Shown here piece after piece: positions 35,336-57,550 of a stretch of DNA of 64,000 bases. Source of the DNA: Aquifex aeolicus VF5 (lineage in GTDB: Bacteria; Aquificota; Aquificia; Aquificales; Aquificaceae). The notes beneath the pieces are model-generated. The model saw only the letters and a program-made list of their open reading frames with translations. It did no database searches and was not told the origin of the DNA. Each line of letters opens with the position of its first letter. Positions within the stretch are counted from its first letter, which is position 1. A program made the translations under genes and the position numbers. The DNA is taken from positions 596,989 through 660,988 of the forward strand of contig NC_000918.1 of assembly GCF_000008625.1 (NCBI RefSeq). Reading direction: 5' to 3'.

Positions 35336-36531
35336 GCCCTCTTTATATGCTTCACGTAAACGAGAACACCTTTACTTATGTTGTACAAAAAGTAAAGAGA
35401 ACTTATAAGGAAGAAAGTGGGAGGGAGAAAGTAAAGCTTAAAAATCAAAAAGATTAAGGAGAATATAGAAATTATGTGAAGGTAAAAGTTATTCCACATC
35501 TTTTTCTGAGGGATTACCTCAAACATCGTGGGGGCTTTGGGTACGCCTTTTGTAGAAAGGTGCATCCACACCAGAAATGGGATAATCCTGTACATCATTG
35601 CCATAATAACGCTTAAAACAAACATTCCAAAGGAAATTAGGAAAAGGTAGAAGAGATTTTCTCTGAACGGGAATAAAACACACGAAATTATCAAAAAGGT
35701 CATAGATACGTACCAGAGACTGATGAGCGGGTCCTTTATCTTTCTCTTTCTCCGGAGGAGTAGTTTAATCGTAAAGAAGGCGTAAATTGTAAAAATCAGA
35801 GATATAAAAACGTCTATTAAGGAAAAGTTAGGTAAAAATACTTTCAAAACCAGTAAAGTAAAAACTGTTTTGGGAAGGTAAGAGGATATAAACTTGGGAT
35901 AAGGTGGGGTTACGAAAAACATTTCTATAACTTGAAAGGAAACGCTTGCAACTAGAGTTGCAGTCCATCCAAAGAGCATAAAACTCATGTGAAGGTCAAA
36001 TAAATACTTGTGGTTTAAGTTTATAAAACCGAATAAATTCAGCACTAAGAACGTTGCAAGAATAATGCCTGCTGTGAAGGAGCCAAGGGCAAACCTGAAG
36101 CCTCTCGGAGCATCTCTTAAGTTCTTTATCCTTAAAAGTTTATATAGCATAAGGGAAGATATGTAGAGGAGGGAAATGAGTAAAAAGAAAAGTCCGAGAA
36201 GAGCAACTTTATTGAAAGAATAAAGACCGTAAACCAGAAATAAGGTTCCGAGGGTGAGCCCGATGTGTACAAAGGTTGCCTTTTTCAGGGGATCTTCTAT
36301 TACCGCACCCGCCACCACGGGAAGCATCTGAAAGAGAGCTCCTATCATTGTGCTCGCCATGAATCCTAGGGTGAACACGTGAACGGAAGGAGTTAAGTAA
36401 AACTCCTTGTTAAAAGCCTGATAAAGCAGAAACAGGAATTCTAAGTTCAGAAAAATCAAAGCAGTTATGAAGAACCTCGCGATTATGCTGAAAGGGGGCA
36501 GGTAAAGAAGGTTTAGTCCTCCCGGGCTCAT
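35305..36531 (-). CDS. polytopic membrane protein, possibly NnrS-family (408 aa, ~12 TM)
   Basis: The size and topology fit NnrS. The [21 protein letters not shown] helix has a conserved-looking His, and the gene is coupled to an upstream hemerythrin-like gene. Confidence 0.4.
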
Positions 36532-52061: not shown

Positions 52062-52806
52062 ATGCCCGTAAAGTTAAAGGTTTACTTAAAACCTGAGAAA
52101 CCTATAAAATCAAGCCTTCTCACACCTGAGGCGGTTCACGGTCTCTTTTTTAACCTCCTTTCGGAAGAATTCGCAGAAGAACTCCACAGACCTTCAAAGG
52201 TAAAGCCCTTTTTCCCTGTGGTTTCCTCAATTTTACGAAGAGGAAAAGGAACTTGATAAGTTCTATCTGGAAGTCTTATTTCTGCAAGAAAGTTTAATGC
52301 CCAAATTTTTATCTTCCTTTTTACTTGAAAATAAAGAAATCCGTTTAAACGGTGTAAAACTGAAAAAAGTTTTAAGCCCGAAAGTGAGCGAGGAGAGTAT
52401 TAAATCTTACGAAACCCTTTTTAATTAGGCAGGAGAGGAAAACACCGTGGTTATGGACTTCATATCACCGACGACGTTTAAAAAGGGCGATTTTGACCAT
52501 CCCCTTCCTGAACAGAAGTTCGTTTTTAAAAGCCTGATAAGAAAGTAGGTGAGGTTTTCCGATTTTCCCCTTGATGCAGATTTAAGGGAATTTATTGAGA
52601 AAAATATTTTCGTGTCTGGCGTATGGACAAAGACGAGGAAAGTTGAAACGGGACAAAATGCAAAACTCGTAGGCTTCACGGGAAGGGTAGTTTACTACGT
52701 GTGGATAAACGCCCTCTCTTCCTTTTCTGAGTTTGCCGGCGTAGGCAGAAAAACCACAATGGGTTTCGGAAAAACAAGAAAAGTTCCCCTCAAAAATTTA
52801 GAATGA
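52062..52806 (+). pseudogene. cas6: cas6 (CRISPR repeat endoribonuclease) pseudogene with one +1 frameshift near 52240 and two in-frame TAG codons (~52423 and ~52546)
   Basis: The N-terminal piece reads MPVKLKVYLKPEKPIKSSLLTPEAVHGLFFNLL... The middle piece, in the next frame, reads EEKELDKFYLEVLFLQE...IRLNGVKLKKV. After a TAG comes DFISPTTFKKGDFDHPLPEQKFVFKSLIRK, then another TAG, and the tail contains FAGVGRKTTMGFGKT, the Cas6 glycine-rich loop GhGxxxxxGhG. Confidence 0.7.
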
Positions 52807-52843
52807 TGTATAATAAATTTACAGCCTTGCTGAGGGCTTTTTA

Positions 52844-53082
52844 GCTCCTTGGCAATTGAATAGGGTTTATGGGTCTTGATAAGTGATGCTTTGATGATGT
52901 GATGAAATGAAATCATGATGTGATATGATTGAAGTGATTGAAAATCAAGGGTAAAAATTTTATAAAGGCATACTCAATTTTGCAGAACCTCGGGTTAGCG
53001 GAAATTAACATTCGTTTCATTAAGGTCAGAAGTCTAATAAGTTATTTATAAAGCGTTTTTTTAGACACAGGCGTGCAGGGTT
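52844..53082 (+). repeat. 239-bp CRISPR-leader-like element, copy 1 (no CRISPR repeats follow)
   Basis: It is 238/239 identical to 56868-57106 and lies directly downstream of the cas6 pseudogene. Confidence 0.9.
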
Positions 53083-53093
53083 ACGCCCTAATA

Positions 53094-53150
53094 ATGAGGG
53101 ATTGCGACTATAATAATGTGGCTCTCTGCAATGATAACAAAAAGCGTTGA
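53094..53150 (+). pseudogene. truncated copy (18 codons) of the small ORF that follows leader copy 2
   Basis: Both copies share the block GCCCTAATAATGAGGGATTG(C/T)GA. The product MRDCDYNNVALCNDNKKR* compares with MRDCDSITFRIDECP... at 57254. Confidence 0.4.
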
Positions 53151-53232
53151 AATGCCCTAAGTAAATAAGAGGTTTTTCTTTCTCATTTCATAAACTTAAT
53201 AAATAAACACTCACTTATAATTAATATTTCCT

Positions 53233-54404: not shown

Positions 54405-55262
54405 ATGTACTTTCAAGACATCATAATGACCCTTCACAAGTTCTGGGCTGAAAAGGGATGTTTAATCTGGCAACCCTACGACGTTGAAGTCGGTGCAGGG
54501 ACAATGAACCCTGCCACTTTCCTGAAAGTTCTTGGTAAAAAGCCGTGGAACGTCGCATACGTTGAACCCTCAAGAAGGCCTCAGGACGGAAGGTACGGAG
54601 AAAACCCCAACAGACTCCAGCACTACTACCAGTTTCAGGTAATTTTAAAGCCCGCACCCCGAAATCCTCAGGAGATTTACCTTGAAAGCCTTGAAAGACT
54701 AGGCATAAATCCCCTGGAACACGACATAAGGTTCGTGGAAGACGACTGGGAATCTCCTACCTTGGGAGCATGGGGACTCGGCTGGGAGGTCTGGCTTGAC
54801 GGAATGGAAATAACCCAGTTCACCTACTTCCAGCAGGCGGGAGGACTTGACCTTGACGAGATATCCGTTGAGATCACTTACGGACTGGAAAGGATAGCGA
54901 TGTACATACAGGATAAAGACAGCGTTTTTGACATAGAGTGGAAAGAGGGAATAACCTACGGCGAGATATTCAAGCGTTCGGAGTGGGAGTGGAGCAAGTA
55001 CAACTTTGAACTTGCAGACACGGATATGCTCTTTCAGGTTTACGAAATGTTTGAAAAGGAATCAAAAAGGATGGTTGAAGAAGGGCTTATATTCCCCGCT
55101 TATGACTACCTCCTGAAGTGTTCCCACGTGTTTAACATACTGGACGCAAGAGGAGCTATTTCCGTTCAGGAGAGGGCGAGGTACATAAGGAGGATGAACA
55201 ACCTTGCAAGGGAAATAGCAAAGCTCTATCTTCAAGTCTTTGAAAATGTTGGAGCAACTTGA
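54405..55262 (+). CDS. glyQ: glycyl-tRNA synthetase alpha subunit
   Basis: [36 protein letters not shown] is highly characteristic of GlyQ. Confidence 0.95.
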
Positions 55263-55905
55263 AAAAAAACTCGGCTACACCTTTAAGGATAAATCTCTAC
55301 TCGAAAAAGCCTTAACCCACGTATCTTACTCAAAAAAAGAACACTACGAAACTCTTGAGTTCCTCGGCGATGCCCTCGTGAATTTTTTTATAGTTGACCT
55401 TCTGGTTCAGTATTCCCCCAACAAAAGGGAAGGCTTTTTATCTCCCTTGAAAGCTTACCTCATAAGTGAAGAGTTTTTTAATTTACTCGCTCAAAAACTG
55501 GAACTTCATAAATTCATAAGAATAAAGAGAGGAAAGATAAACGAAACAATTATAGGAGACGTATTTGAAGCTCTTTGGGCAGCGGTTTACATAGATTCGG
55601 GAAGGGACGCAAACTTCACACGGGAACTTTTTTACAAACTTTTTAAAGAAGATATACTGAGTGCTATAAAAGAGGGAAGAGTAAAAAAAGATTACAAAAC
55701 GATACTTCAGGAGATCACTCAAAAACGATGGAAGGAAAGACCGGAATACAGACTCATAAGTGTTGAAGGTCCTCACCATAAAAAGAAGTTCATAGTGGAA
55801 GCAAAAATAAAAGAGTACCGAACACTCGGCGAAGGAAAGAGCAAAAAGGAAGCTGAACAAAGGGCAGCCGAGGAATTAATTAAATTACTGGAGGAATCAG
55901 AATGA
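55240..55905 (+). CDS. rnc: ribonuclease III
   Basis: 221 aa with the RNase III signature ETLEFLGDA and a C-terminal dsRBD. Confidence 0.95.
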
Positions 55906-56831
55906 AAAAAGGAGTAATACTTATAAACCTCGGCGGACCTGATTCTCTGGAAGCGGTAGAGCCGTTCCTTTATAACCTTTTCTCAGATCCAGATATTTTC
56001 TCCTTACCCTTTCAAAAAGTTCTCGCAAAAATAATCGCAAAGTTAAGGGCTAAAAAAACGAGACATTACTACGAGCTTATGGGAGGAAAGTCTCCCCAAT
56101 ACGAACAAACCCTTGAACAGGCTAAAGCACTTCAGGAAAGACTAGGAGAAGATTACAAGGTAGTTGTGGGAATGAGATACTGGAAACCTTACATAAAAGA
56201 CGCACTTTCTGAACTCCTGAAGGAAGGAATAAACGAAGTAATACTCCTTCCCCTGTACCCCCAGTACAGCAAAACGACAACTGGTTCCGCTTTTAACGAG
56301 TTTGAAAGGAGCAAAAAAGCCCTCAAAGCGGACCACATTAAAGTTAAGAAAATAGAACACTTTTACGACCACCCCCTCTATATAAAGGCGTGGGCCGAGC
56401 AGATAAAACAGAGCGTTGAAAAGCCCGAAGAATACCATTTTCTCTTTTCCGCCCACAGCCTTCCCAAGAAATTGATAGAAGAAGGAGACCCTTATCAGGA
56501 ACAAACCGAAAAAACGGTAAAACTCATTATGGAAAATTTCCCTGAAGTAGAATACACGCTTGCTTACCAGAGTAAAGTGGGTTTCGGAAAGTGGCTCGAA
56601 CCCTCAACAGACGAAGTAATCAGAAACCTGATTAAGAAAGAAGTTAAAAAGTTATTAGTTATTCCCATATCCTTTGTTTCCGAACACAGCGAAACCCTTT
56701 ACGAACTCGACAAACAATACAGAGAACTTGCCCAAGAACTGGGATACGAAGAATTCGTAAGAGTCCCTACTCTAAGAACAAACCCCTACTTCATATCTGC
56801 ACTTGAAGATTTAGTAAAAAATGAAGTATAG
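55902..56831 (+). CDS. hemH: ferrochelatase
   Basis: [34 protein letters not shown]-terminus and a length of 309 aa. Confidence 0.9.
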   Translation: MKKGVILINLGGPDSLEAVEPFLYNLFSDPDIFSLPFQKVLAKIIAKLRAKKTRHYYELMGGKSPQYEQTLEQAKALQERLGEDYKVVVGMRYWKPYIKDALSELLKEGINEVILLPLYPQYSKTTTGSAFNEFERSKKALKADHIKVKKIEHFYDHPLYIKAWAEQIKQSVEKPEEYHFLFSAHSLPKKLIEEGDPYQEQTEKTVKLIMENFPEVEYTLAYQSKVGFGKWLEPSTDEVIRNLIKKEVKKLLVIPISFVSEHSETLYELDKQYRELAQELGYEEFVRVPTLRTNPYFISALEDLVKNEV

Positions 56832-56867
56832 TAAAATTAAGTAAAGGGCTTTTTTAGCCCTCTCGTG

Positions 56868-57106
56868 GCTCCTTGGCAACTGAATAGGGTTTATGGGTCT
56901 TGATAAGTGATGCTTTGATGATGTGATGAAATGAAATCATGATGTGATATGATTGAAGTGATTGAAAATCAAGGGTAAAAATTTTATAAAGGCATACTCA
57001 ATTTTGCAGAACCTCGGGTTAGCGGAAATTAACATTCGTTTCATTAAGGTCAGAAGTCTAATAAGTTATTTATAAAGCGTTTTTTTAGACACAGGCGTGC
57101 AGGGTT
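56868..57106 (+). repeat. 239-bp CRISPR-leader-like element, copy 2, followed directly by CRISPR repeats
   Basis: It is 238/239 identical to 52844-53082, with a single T/C difference near the 5' end. A hemH terminator-like hairpin (GGGCTttttAGCCC) lies just upstream. Confidence 0.9.
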
Positions 57107-57202
57107 CCTAATGTACCATAGAGGAGTTGAAACGTCGTCTATGAAGTCGTAAGCCTCTTTAAGTTTTTGTTTAGTTCCTAATGTACCGTGCGGAGCTTAA
57201 AC
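57104..57202 (+). CRISPR. degenerate CRISPR mini-array of two repeats (30 and 29 nt) flanking one 40-nt spacer, with a possible further spacer and a degenerate terminal repeat to ~57272
   Basis: R1 is GTTCCTAATGTACCATAGAGGAGTTGAAAC, the spacer is GTCGTCTATGAAGTCGTAAGCCTCTTTAAGTTTTTGTTTA, and R2 is GTTCCTAATGTACCGTGCGGAGCTTAAAC. The repeats share 14 nt at the 5' end plus a GGAG...AAAC tail, like the (A/G)TTGAAAC 5'-handle type processed by Cas6. Confidence 0.6.
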
Positions 57203-57253
57203 TTTTATCATGTATGTACAGGATTATTTGAATCTTGTGGTTATGCCCTAATA

Positions 57254-57550
57254 ATGAGGGATTGTGATTCCATAACATTCCGTATTGACGAATGCCCTGT
57301 TCCCCTCCTGAGCATAAAGAATGCTTACCTGAAAGTTAATGAAATATCTCCCGAAGACTTTGTTGATAGAATTAAGCATTCCGGCTATCTTTCAATGCTA
57401 AGAAAAGGGGAATTAATTAAAACTTTAGAATGTGATTTTAATCTAAATTTAAGAAAAAAGTGCGAGAAAAATCTGGAAAAAGGAGACAAGGCTATATTAA
57501 TAATCCATGAAGAAAAGGAATTAAAGTTTTTCGATATTGAGGTCTTGTAA
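57254..57550 (+). CDS. hypothetical 98-aa protein immediately downstream of the CRISPR remnant, with a truncated paralog at 53094
   Basis: MRDCDSITFRIDECPVPLLSIKNAYLKVNEISPEDFVDRIKHSGYLSMLRKGELIKTLECDF... No family was recognised. The ATG chosen is the one conserved between the two loci. Confidence 0.4.
   Translation: MRDCDSITFRIDECPVPLLSIKNAYLKVNEISPEDFVDRIKHSGYLSMLRKGELIKTLECDFNLNLRKKCEKNLEKGDKAILIIHEEKELKFFDIEVL

Follow-up and report, generated by a model that had tools for sequence, protein, structure and literature searches.

A genuine CRISPR array that has been eroding, and that is of mosaic make-up, probably lies at positions 57104–57268 of the 64-kb stretch of Aquifex aeolicus VF5 DNA analyzed here (referred to as the window hereafter). 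In this interpretation, a leader of the type I-B kind precedes two worn repeats from a single family (R1 and R2; the A-type family hereafter) with two spacers, and a relic of another family (R3; the B-type family hereafter) stands last, the combination having been grafted together, or left by a deletion, through recombination. The assignment of the DNA to A. aeolicus agrees with its RNase III, which matches all 221 residues of PDB chain 1yyk_A (E = 6e-140), an entry for the A. aeolicus enzyme, and with contigs identical to the window, which stem from the samples in which the Cas1b and Cmr6 proteins named Aquifex aeolicus occur.

The elements are all on the + strand. R1 (GTTCCTAATGTACCATAGAGGAGTTGAAAC, 30 nt, 57104–57133) and R2 (GTTCCTAATGTACCGTGCGGAGCTTAAAC, 29 nt, 57174–57202) are A-type repeats and flank the spacer S1 (40 nt, 57134–57173). 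A second spacer, S2 (57203–57239), separates R2 from R3 (GTTATGCCCTAATAATGAGGGATTGTGAT, 29 nt, 57240–57268), which is a shortened relic of the type III-A-associated B-type repeat. An earlier reading of this DNA from its letters alone (the sequence-only reading) had described two repeats that share their 5′ end and flank one 40-nt spacer, and this description was confirmed: the window holds exactly two copies of the 14-mer GTTCCTAATGTACC, 70 nt apart. The second spacer, which had also been given as 40 nt, was found to measure 37 nt. Two direct repeats of 30 and 29 nt, whose starts are 70 nt apart, agree with the generic definition of a CRISPR (two or more direct repeats of 23–47 nt with similar-sized spacers). 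Near-identity of the repeats within the array is, however, absent: when aligned by hand, R1 and R2 agree in 24 of 30 columns (about 80%), and R3 comes from another family.

The leader and its second copy

The region upstream of R1, leader copy 2 (236 nt, 56868–57103, +), has a 236-nt counterpart, leader copy 1, at 52844–53079 (+), and the two copies are near-identical. The duplicate as a whole covers 239 nt, 238 of which are identical to 52844–53082, and the array starts exactly at its end. The single leader mismatch (C at 56880) is a T, as in copy 1, in a strain diverged by 0.06%.

Comparison with other leaders showed that this 236-nt sequence is a true CRISPR leader, belonging to the family of the type I-B adaptation module. 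Copy 2 is identical at 144 of 166 positions (87%) to the leader that follows cas2 in the I-B/III-B locus of A. aeolicus itself, and it shares blocks with the leaders of loci L114 and L021 and with the A. pyrophilus leader in L129; a −10 box, a hairpin, a boxA and the block CGGAAATTAAC are common to the leaders of these three loci. It lies upstream of the repeats, faces them and is homologous to the leaders of cas-adjacent arrays, which bears out the earlier proposal that the mini-array directly follows a genuine leader and is oriented from leader to repeat on the + strand.

Several elements were located in and around the leader. A promoter-like site (TTGAAG, an 18-nt spacer and TATAGT; 56803–56832, +), found with a consensus scan, overlaps the stop codon of hemH upstream of leader copy 2. 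A TATAAT-like −10 box takes the same relative position in five aligned leaders, and we infer a promoter function for 56803–56832. A GC-rich hairpin (AGGGCU-loop-AGCCCU; 56845–56861, +) follows, with a predicted energy of −9.6 kcal/mol (z = −3.0); a hairpin was found at the same place in all eight leaders examined, and the stem sequences are unrelated. A few nucleotides further downstream, the boxA-like element GGCTCCTTGGCA (56867–56878, +), a putative NusB/E binding site, forms the 5′ end of the leader. This element is kept in the leaders of L124, L114, L132, L134 and L138 and has variants in L021, L129 and L141, so that GGCTCCTTGGCA or a close variant stands between promoter and first repeat in eight leaders. 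Inside the leader, the palindrome TTGAAAATCAA (56962–56972, +) is also found; its pattern, TTGA(W3)TCAA, occurs in the window only twice, once per leader copy (mean of the shuffles, 0.27), and is present in the leaders of L124, L021, L132, L138 and L141 as well.

GGCTCCTTGGCA is taken here to be the rRNA boxA of A. aeolicus, as reportedly described by Das et al. 2008. The same equation is made in a published statement, which also describes boxA-like leaders upstream of five A. aeolicus arrays (PMC7665894). Antitermination of CRISPR arrays through boxA has been described for Salmonella and others (Stringer et al. 2020), and in rrn leaders a hairpin is followed by boxA. The present arrangement is like those cases: in all eight leaders, GGCTCCTTGGCA occupies the 5′ end and is preceded by the −10 box and the hairpin; antitermination here is putative. 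Searches of the literature with the repeat sequence and with the boxA RNA sequence gave no match.

R1, R2 and the possible working of the array

The reference for the A-type family is external: the consensus GTTCCTAATGTACCGTGTGGAGTTGAAAG (29 nt) was taken from the arrays of L021 and L114 in related Aquificaceae, which are among the matches listed to the 14-mer. In L021 it forms 24 identical repeats with a period of 64–72 nt, and at least four copies adjoin the type I-B operon in L114. R2 agrees with the consensus at 25 of 29 positions (4 mismatches). R1 agrees at all 14 positions of the 5′ end and at all 10 of the 3′ end (GGAGTTGAAA), and its core is ATAGA (5 nt) where the consensus has GTGT (4 nt). 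R1 and R2 are thus shown to be members of the A-type family of Aquificaceae I-B/III-B loci. The resemblance of the repeat tail to a crRNA handle, noticed in the sequence-only reading, is supported: the tail GTTGAAAC agrees with the consensus tail GTTGAAAG; in R2 the last 8 nt have been altered to GCTTAAAC in place of GTTGAAAG, with two substitutions in the tag. The objection that real arrays might carry an unrelated repeat is countered, both because the arrays of related Aquificaceae (24 and at least 4 repeats) carry the same one and because of the leader homology to A. aeolicus's own cas2-proximal leader, inside which the A. aeolicus contigs end. The length of S1 likewise fits the 35–43 nt implied by the periods in L021. 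The A-type repeat is predicted to form only a weak hairpin (−3.7 kcal/mol, z about −1), and in Rfam no CRISPR-DR or other family was found at permissive thresholds.

The unstructured Cas6 repeats of Pyrococcus furiosus reportedly have a GTTCC... 5′ end and the 8-nt tag ATTGAAAG (Carte et al. 2008; Wang et al. 2011). R1 and R2 resemble these type I-B/III-B repeats in that they begin with GTTCC, end with GTTGAAAC or a variant and are predicted to fold weakly. PF01881 is the Cas6 family accompanying this repeat type. Unlike in P. furiosus, the R1 core and the R2 tag are mutated, and cleavage of R1 and R2 is putative. A PF01881 Cas6 is found in the A. pyrophilus I-B operon, which carries an A-type leader and repeat, and the cmr module of A. 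aeolicus includes a full-length 247-aa gene for one (known from its gene call and Pfam label).

The array is probably transcribed. Transcription would start from the −10 element near 56827–56832, pass the hairpin and then boxA, at which NusB/E antitermination would act, and run through the array into the open reading frame behind it. The PF01881 Cas6 of the cmr module may cut R1 8 nt before its end, between 57125 and 57126, and perhaps also R2, between 57194 and 57195. The product would be one crRNA for use by the Cmr or I-B effectors, made up of the 40-nt S1 guide and the normal tag GUUGAAAC. In the S2 unit the tag would be abnormal (GCUUAAAC), and no repeat that could be cut follows this unit, R3 having lost its cognate Cas6 (see below). 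As far as can be judged from the sequence, at most one normal crRNA, that of spacer 1, would be possible; with one nucleotide more in the R1 core than in the consensus, and with mutations in the R2 tail, even this one may not be made.

Whether the locus could instead be a fully functional minimal array, with S1 and S2 both processed into working crRNAs and acquisition still possible through an intact leader, has to be considered. The leader is indeed intact, its two copies are almost identical and it carries the elements kept in the leaders of large arrays; the genome encodes Cas1, Cas2, Cas4, the I-B and III-B effector genes and the PF01881 Cas6; and the 5′ 14 nt are kept in both R1 and R2. 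Nevertheless, with differences between R1 and R2 at about 20% of the positions, neither repeat is a recent duplicate of its partner, such as acquisition would leave, and there is no sign of ongoing adaptation. Moreover, the substitutions in the 8-nt tag of R2, the lack of any A-type repeat downstream of S2 and the pseudogene state of the Cas6 cognate to R3 are at odds with two working crRNAs; the array is the same in two slightly diverged lineages, and no targets of the spacers were found. This explanation therefore seems rather unlikely.

As for the targets, neither S1 nor S2 had a match in the INPHARED phages, the PLSDB plasmids or IMG/VR; Aquificota viruses are poorly sampled. The phage and plasmid searches returned chance-level matches only (E ≥ 0.1), and IMG/VR, queried with four 20–22-mers, returned none. 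Within the window, S1 has no match beyond 14 nt. S2 matches glyQ at 16 of 17 positions (54901–54917) and shares a 14-mer at 35582–35595 (blastn-short E of 0.005–0.02); neither is nearly long enough for a protospacer, and the glyQ match was rejected as one.

The open reading frame that begins inside R3, ORF98 (57254–57550, +; 98 aa, with its ATG in R3), raises another possibility: that the unit has lost its CRISPR function and been co-opted, with the leader promoter, boxA and the remnant of the array serving as promoter and 5′ UTR of ORF98. The 98 codons are in frame and are called as a gene in independent assemblies, this frame outscores both alternatives by a wide margin, and no terminator was found between the array and ORF98. 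However, ORF98 is an orphan. It has no match in Pfam or NCBIfam, and among 1.84 billion representatives it has no homologue except itself and one weak repetitive match. Its codon score (0.078) is below the 5th percentile (0.141) of the real genes in the window, no obvious Shine-Dalgarno sequence was seen before it on inspection, and no ORF of this kind accompanies the matching leader and relic of copy 1. We thus regard co-option as quite unlikely.

R3, the relics behind leader copy 1 and the cas6 pseudogene

The B-type family comprises repeats of 35–36 nt (...ATGCCCTAA...GGGATTGCGAC) associated with type III-A loci; clean arrays of it are present in L134, L138 and L141, while L132 offers a single first repeat at a contig end. 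R3 reached a local-alignment score of 30 with the repeats of L132 and L134, a value attained in none of 1000 shuffles (null, about 10.5 ± 2.2); the maxima of whole-window shuffles against the B-type repeat were 24–28, and R3 is among the top matches in the whole window. R3 keeps the CCCT/AGGG stem, and its tail is ATTGTGAT in place of ATTGCGAC. It was thus shown that R3 is a relic of the B-type family and not of the A-type family.

Corresponding relics follow leader copy 1. The first, R3a (29 nt, 53080–53108, +), lies at the leader junction, is identical to R3 at 27 of 29 positions and retains both the stem before the tag and the canonical tail ATTGCGAC; its score with the L132 repeat is 32 (0 of 1000 shuffles). 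A spacer-like segment of 37 nt, defined by position only (53109–53145, +), separates it from a second relic, R3b (53146–53180, +), which is complete in its 5′ half (GTTGAAATGCCCTAA) and decayed at the 3′ end, in this respect resembling the terminal repeat CTTGAAATGCCCTAATTAAATAAGGGTTATGATAT of L141. R3b scored 36 (0 of 1000 shuffles), and its start lies 66 nt past that of R3a, which is a CRISPR spacing. R3 and R3a, at 29 nt against 35–36 nt, have in common two idiosyncratic deletions relative to the full-length B-type repeats. All three relics match the B-type repeat, and none is both full-length and provided with an intact ATTGCGAC tail, that of R3a alone being intact.

Some further candidates were rejected. 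The block 57267–57296 (p about 0.02) as an A-type relic and that around 57283–57316 (p of 0.002–0.03) as a B-type relic were treated as noise, since the blocks overlap and their spacing is wrong. A B-type-like match at 22568–22590 (score 28) is within the shuffle maxima, and the single match of the R3 core 20-mer in metagenomes, inside a membrane-protein gene, was attributed to chance.

Upstream of leader copy 1 lies a cas6 gene of the PF10040 family (52062–52806, +), whose reading frame is broken by one frameshift and two in-frame stop codons; gene calling recovers only fragments of it in two independent read sets. After reconstruction, the protein shares 62% identity with intact Cas6 proteins from metagenomes; among solved structures it is closest to 4c8y (labelled CAS6A; 5e-17) and 4c98 (CAS6B). 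Four independent loci combine an intact PF10040 orthologue with B-type arrays, and csm genes are present in two of these. Because the orthologues sit with B-type arrays in III-A loci, the pseudogene is the lost partner of R3, not of R1 and R2. The sequence-only reading had named this pseudogene as the only cas6 nearby; its family is the wrong one for R1 and R2, since A-type leaders and repeats are accompanied by the PF01881 Cas6 family. Neither a functional cognate Cas6 nor csm genes accompany the B-type relics: no csm gene remains in the window, and leuC and ftsH occupy the upstream site expected for csm. The leader of copy 1, the B-type relics and the cas6 pseudogene probably mark a lost type III-A system.

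The handle AUUGCGAC has been reported at the 5′ end of the Csm crRNA of Thermus thermophilus (PMC8157118). The repeats of the Cas6A/Cas6B type in this organism (4c8y and 4c98, the chains to which the pseudogene product is closest) are like R3a, which ends with ATTGCGAC, and R3 and R3a keep the CCCT/AGGG stem. In contrast to the T. thermophilus type, R3 and R3a have only 29 nt with their shared deletions, the tag of R3 is ATTGTGAT, the Cas6 has been inactivated and csm is absent from the window.

The mutual positional relationship of the two loci suggests how the mosaic may have arisen. In the copy-1 locus, 4 kb upstream and beside the cas6 pseudogene, the same leader is joined directly to the same relic, followed by one more. 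The two copies are homologous from boxA onward, and the homology stops precisely with the last base of the B-type repeat; its only interruption is the 136-nt block R1-S1-R2-S2. This block cannot stem from normal spacer acquisition on R3, since acquisition copies the first repeat. The two loci may rather have traded sequence, by recombination or gene conversion, by way of the shared leader and the shared B-type repeat; copy 2 would then have gained the block as a graft where leader and repeat meet, or copy 1 would have lost it by a deletion across a 4-nt microhomology (G|GTT). The extent of the homology, the two deletions common to R3 and R3a and the T that the slightly diverged strain has at the one leader mismatch speak for such an exchange. 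In the JGI metagenomes, an A-type repeat followed one spacer later by a B-type core was not found, and the mosaic consequently has no precedent there.

A bolder version of this history, which we consider very unlikely, is that the surviving I-B adaptation module took over arrays orphaned by the loss of the III-A system: its leader would have been grafted onto B-type repeats trimmed to its own 29 nt, and A-type units would have been placed at the leader junction. If true, such cross-system capture would keep old arrays usable.

The third block had been read earlier as a more degenerate copy of the same repeat as R1 and R2. This would make a single family of three repeats with degeneracy growing away from the leader, R3 being the usual decayed terminal repeat and dependent on the nearby dead cas6. 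R3 does begin with GTT one spacer length (37 nt) past R2, terminal repeats are often degenerate, and CCTAAT is common to R3 and the A-type repeat. Yet R3 resembles the A-type consensus no more than expected by chance (score 12; null, 11.1 ± 2.5; p = 0.44) and R3 was accordingly rejected as an A-type repeat, whereas its B-type similarity is highly significant over the stem and the tail; copy 1 contains a second B-type relic at CRISPR spacing; and the family of the cas6 pseudogene accompanies B-type, not A-type, arrays. A single family is thus highly improbable. Finally, that the locus is not CRISPR-derived at all and owes its appearance to chance, as two imperfect repeats in an AT-rich intergenic region might suggest, is practically negligible, given the 4 mismatches of R2 to the A-type consensus against 9 or more for the best match in 50 window shuffles, the alignment scores of 44 for both R1 and R2 against a null of 10.5 ± 2.2, the leader homologous to cas2-proximal leaders and a spacing within the range of the family.

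Comparison with known loci and significance

Small CRISPR loci are catalogued in A. aeolicus VF5 (NC_000918_1 to _10 in CRISPRdb/CRISPRFinder): ten candidates, five of them confirmed, with 3–5 repeats or even one spacer (PMC1892036, PMC1933234), or five loci with four to five repeats in another account (PMC4227106; Lechner et al. 2014). The present locus is in the same genome and of the same style. The texts consulted on the A. aeolicus CRISPR loci describe neither a second repeat family in one array nor a link to the cas6 pseudogene. The locus is also like orphan, degenerate or empty arrays in having few decayed repeats, no adjacent functional cas genes and spacers without targets; the cas2-proximal leader of A. 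pyrophilus is likewise followed by one degenerate repeat. It is unlike them in that one leader precedes repeats of two unrelated families here and is well preserved and duplicated.

What the eroding mosaic array records is thus the erosion and recombination of arrays; it does not represent a new kind of system. For annotation, it gives the caution that a "degenerate terminal repeat" may be the relic of a different repeat family. R1, R2, R3 and R3a together provide a natural set of substrates on the tolerance of Cas6 to repeat damage. Above all, the locus shows CRISPR decay and recombination in a very compact hyperthermophile genome, with several stages kept side by side: a dead cas6, relics of its repeat family, a well-kept duplicated leader from another system and, spliced between this leader and the relics, two of that system's worn repeats.

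Repeats of two families behind leader copy 2

The sequence-only reading had placed a degenerate two-repeat CRISPR mini-array at 57104-57272, immediately behind leader copy 2 (56868-57103), and on re-reading the window we found that the sequence of the region agrees with this account. Five segments follow one another: R1 (57104-57133; GTTCCTAATGTACCATAGAGGAGTTGAAAC, 30 nt), the spacer S1 (57134-57173; 40 nt), R2 (57174-57202; GTTCCTAATGTACCGTGCGGAGCTTAAAC, 29 nt), the spacer S2 (57203-57239), which measures 37 nt and not the 40 nt first given, and R3 (57240-57268; GTTATGCCCTAATAATGAGGGATTGTGAT). R1 and R2 hold the only two copies of the 14-mer GTTCCTAATGTACC in the 64 kb.

By sequence, R1 and R2 are recognized as members of a real repeat family, the A-type, a 29-nt family of Aquificaceae I-B/III-B loci. 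Its repeat GTTCCTAATGTACCGTGTGGAGTTGAAAG is present in 24 identical copies with periods of 64-72 nt in a Thermocrinis MAG (L021), and in at least 4 copies behind cas7-cas5-cas8-cas3-cas4-cas1 in an Aquificaceae MAG (L114). R2 differs from the A-type consensus at 4 of 29 positions, and in R1 the 5′ 14 nt and GGAGTTGAAA are intact, with ATAGA replacing GTGT; in shuffled windows, the best match to the consensus carries at least 9 mismatches. Aligned with the consensus, R1 and R2 each score 44 (null, 10.5 ± 2.2), and the blocks start 70 and 66 nt apart, which is within the range of the family. Hardly any structure is predicted for the A-type repeat (-3.7 kcal/mol, z ~ -1), which recalls the GTTCC...ATTGAAAG repeats that PF01881-type Cas6 enzymes process.

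The third block had been regarded as a more degenerate copy of the same repeat. This assignment was abandoned: R3 resembles the A-type consensus no more than expected by chance (p = 0.44), and R3 strongly matches a second family, the B-type, of which it is identified as a relic. The lead to this family was provided by the nearby cas6 gene, which, as had been stated, is a pseudogene: it carries one frameshift and two in-frame stops, and the gene calls from two independent read sets, one with 0.06% divergence, contain fragments of it only. The closest solved chains to its reconstructed product are labelled CAS6A and CAS6B (4c8y, 5e-17, and 4c98). Its intact relatives (51-62% identical, PF10040) lie in loci of the order cas10/csm1-csm2-RAMPs-csx1-cas6, then opposite-strand cas2-cas1-cas2, whose arrays use another repeat of 35-36 nt (CTTGCAATGCCCTAAGTAAAGGAAGGGATTGCGAC in L138, CTTGAAATGCCCTAATTAAATAAAGGGATTGCGAC in L141). 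No csm genes are left within the window.

Two further B-type relics were found: R3a (53080-53108; GTTACGCCCTAATAATGAGGGATTGCGAC), directly after leader copy 1 (52844-53079), and R3b (53146-53180; GTTGAAATGCCCTAAGTAAATAAGAGGTTTTTC), which starts 66 nt downstream of the R3a start and is similar to the terminal repeat of L141, likewise decayed. Against the B-type repeats, R3 and R3a score 30-32 and R3b scores 36 (null, ~10.5 ± 2.2), values reached in 0 of 1000 shuffles; the three are the top B-type matches in the whole window, the maxima of shuffled windows being 24-28. R3 and R3a have two deletions in common relative to the full-length repeats, and so both derive from a single copy that was already shortened. 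The 3′ end of R3a is ATTGCGAC, the 5′ handle of the Thermus thermophilus Csm crRNA (PMC8157118).

The stretch 52843-53180 comprises leader copy 1 and two B-type relics with a 37-nt spacer-like segment between them; it is a second fossil array, with a single spacer, immediately behind the cas6 pseudogene. Upstream of cas6 in L134 (1-260) and L138 (1-350), adjacent repeats within a B-type array differ in their loops (AGTGAAGAA, ACAAAAGA, and ATAAAATA in L134). Repeats of this type therefore tolerate or accumulate changes in the loop, with the CCCT/AGGG stem and the ATTGCGAC tail retained.

The leader and its relatives

An unrelated repeat, or the lack of any similar array, had been named as the outcome speaking against a CRISPR origin. 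What was found is a leader homologous to the cas2-proximal leader of A. aeolicus, with an order of elements common to other leaders, and it is accordingly classed as a genuine CRISPR leader. The A. aeolicus cas locus (L124) consists of cmr genes, csx1, csx3, cas7, cas5, cas8b1, cas3, cas4, cas1b, and cas2, then the leader, which is identical to that of the window at 144 of 166 positions (87%), compared up to a contig break in repeated sequence. The read sets that yield contigs identical to the window also carry the proteins named Aquifex aeolicus Cas1b and Cmr6.

The recurring order, seen in L114, L021, A. pyrophilus (L129), and the type III-A loci, is a TATAAT-like -10 box, a GC-rich hairpin, GGCTCCTTGGCA or a close variant, and further blocks such as CGGAAATTAAC. 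The hairpin stem sequence is unrelated from leader to leader; 7 of the 8 hairpins fold better than shuffles (z ≤ -1.7). The -10 box, the hairpin, and boxA, the element at the leader 5′ end, follow in this order in all 8 leaders examined (window 52811-52855 and 56827-56879; L124 11200-11270; L114; L021; L129 11410-11470; L132 8840-8890; L134 3500-3560), with boxA 3-6 nt after the hairpin. The hairpin-boxA order recalls the boxB-boxA order of rrn leaders. The closest relatives of the window leader are I-B-associated leaders (AAGTTATTYATARAGC and GTGC(A)GG are common to the A. pyrophilus leader), so both copies join an I-B-type leader to B-type relics.

Other features were noted within the leader. 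One is the palindrome TTGAAAATCAA (TTGA-W3-TCAA; 52938-52948 and 56962-56972), a candidate site that may bind a protein: it occurs twice in 64 kb, once per leader copy, against 0.27 expected by chance, and also in the leaders of L124, L021, L132, L138 (twice), and L141. Another is a run of GATG/TGAT-type short repeats GTGATGCTTTGATGATGTGATGAAATGAAATCATGATGTGATATGAT (52883-52930 and 56907-56954; Tandem Repeats Finder), inside which, downstream of boxA, lies a promoter-like site (ATGAAA, a 16-nt spacer, and the TG-extended -10 TATGAT).

In A. pyrophilus (L129 11400-11710), the I-B cas2-proximal leader is followed by one degenerate A-type repeat, GTTCCTAATTAACCGTGTGGAGGTGGTTG, and then pmbA; this array is empty, beside a cas operon with all genes called full length. 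An Argonaute gene lies ~4 kb further on, with a SAVED-domain gene in front of cas6. Between csx3 and cas7 in A. aeolicus is a protein (L124 3039-3980) with no Pfam family and a weak Csx14 match in NCBIfam; no-Pfam proteins inside type III-A csm modules (L132 2650-3591, L141 3725-4657) are likened to it by size (310-313 aa). L141 11263-12975 encodes a 570-aa protein with a STIV_B116-like domain, the family taking its name from an archaeal virus protein; the gene lies ~2.7 kb downstream of the adaptation genes, and the B-type array occupies the interval.

History of the two copies

The gene order is ftsH, leuC, the broken cas6, leader copy 1, cupin, gcvH, a thioredoxin-like gene, glyQ, rnc, hemH, leader copy 2 with the mini-array, an orphan ORF, and convergent pheA. 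All 221 residues of the RNase III encoded at 55240-55905 match PDB chain 1yyk_A (E = 6e-140), the crystallised A. aeolicus RNase III. The segments 52844-53082 and 56868-57106 form a 239-nt duplicate with 238 identical positions (the one mismatch is 52856 T / 56880 C), and the mini-array starts at its exact end. The divergence between R1 and R2 is far greater than that between the leaders, which suggests that the repeats are old and not being renewed.

Copy 1 has the anatomy cas6 pseudogene-leader-B-spacer-B, and copy 2 leader-A-S1-A-S2-B. Their homology starts at boxA and ends with the final base of the B-type repeat; its sole interruption is the 136-nt block R1-S1-R2-S2, placed precisely where leader and repeat join and flanked by G|GTT microhomology. 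Since spacer acquisition copies the first repeat, the A-type repeats cannot derive from R3. The simplest account would be recombination or gene conversion between paralogous loci: the leader on the left and the B-type repeat on the right would provide homology for exchange, and R1-S1-R2-S2 would then have entered copy 2 as a graft or been lost from copy 1 by deletion. The ERR15087784 lineage (L121), at ~0.06% divergence from the window, has the base of copy 1 at 56880, and its leader copies are identical at 239 of 239 positions, which fits ongoing homogenisation and suggests gene conversion between the copies.

Possible operation and place among known CRISPRs

Transcription would start from the promoter-like -10 element at 56827-56832 and proceed past the hairpin and boxA, across the array, and into ORF98; no terminator-like site was found between the array and ORF98. 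A 247-aa PF01881 Cas6 is known as a gene call inside the A. aeolicus cmr module, and a Cas6 of this family is also found in the A. pyrophilus I-B operon. If the A. aeolicus enzyme still accepts R1, a cut 8 nt from the R1 end would yield a crRNA that carries GUUGAAAC as its tag and S1, of 40 nt, as its guide. The R2 tag is GCUUAAAC; with this tag, and with the enzyme for R3 lost, an S2 crRNA would be abnormal at both ends. No targets of S1 or S2 were found in phage, plasmid, or IMG/VR collections, nor within the window.

ORF98 (57254-57550) is a 98-codon orphan with its start within R3; its end lies 3 nt short of the convergent pheA stop codon. This candidate gene has a weak codon score, below the 5th percentile of the window genes, no homologues among 1.84 billion representatives, and no domain matches.

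A. aeolicus VF5 is known for many very small CRISPRs. Ten CRISPRdb candidates, some single-spacer, have been listed for it (PMC1892036, PMC1933234), and five CRISPR loci with four to five repeats have been described (PMC4227106). In the literature searched, neither the two-family composition nor the link to the cas6 pseudogene was found described, and no other A-to-B junctions were found in metagenomes. The locus is a somewhat unusual degenerate or orphan CRISPR array, not a new system.
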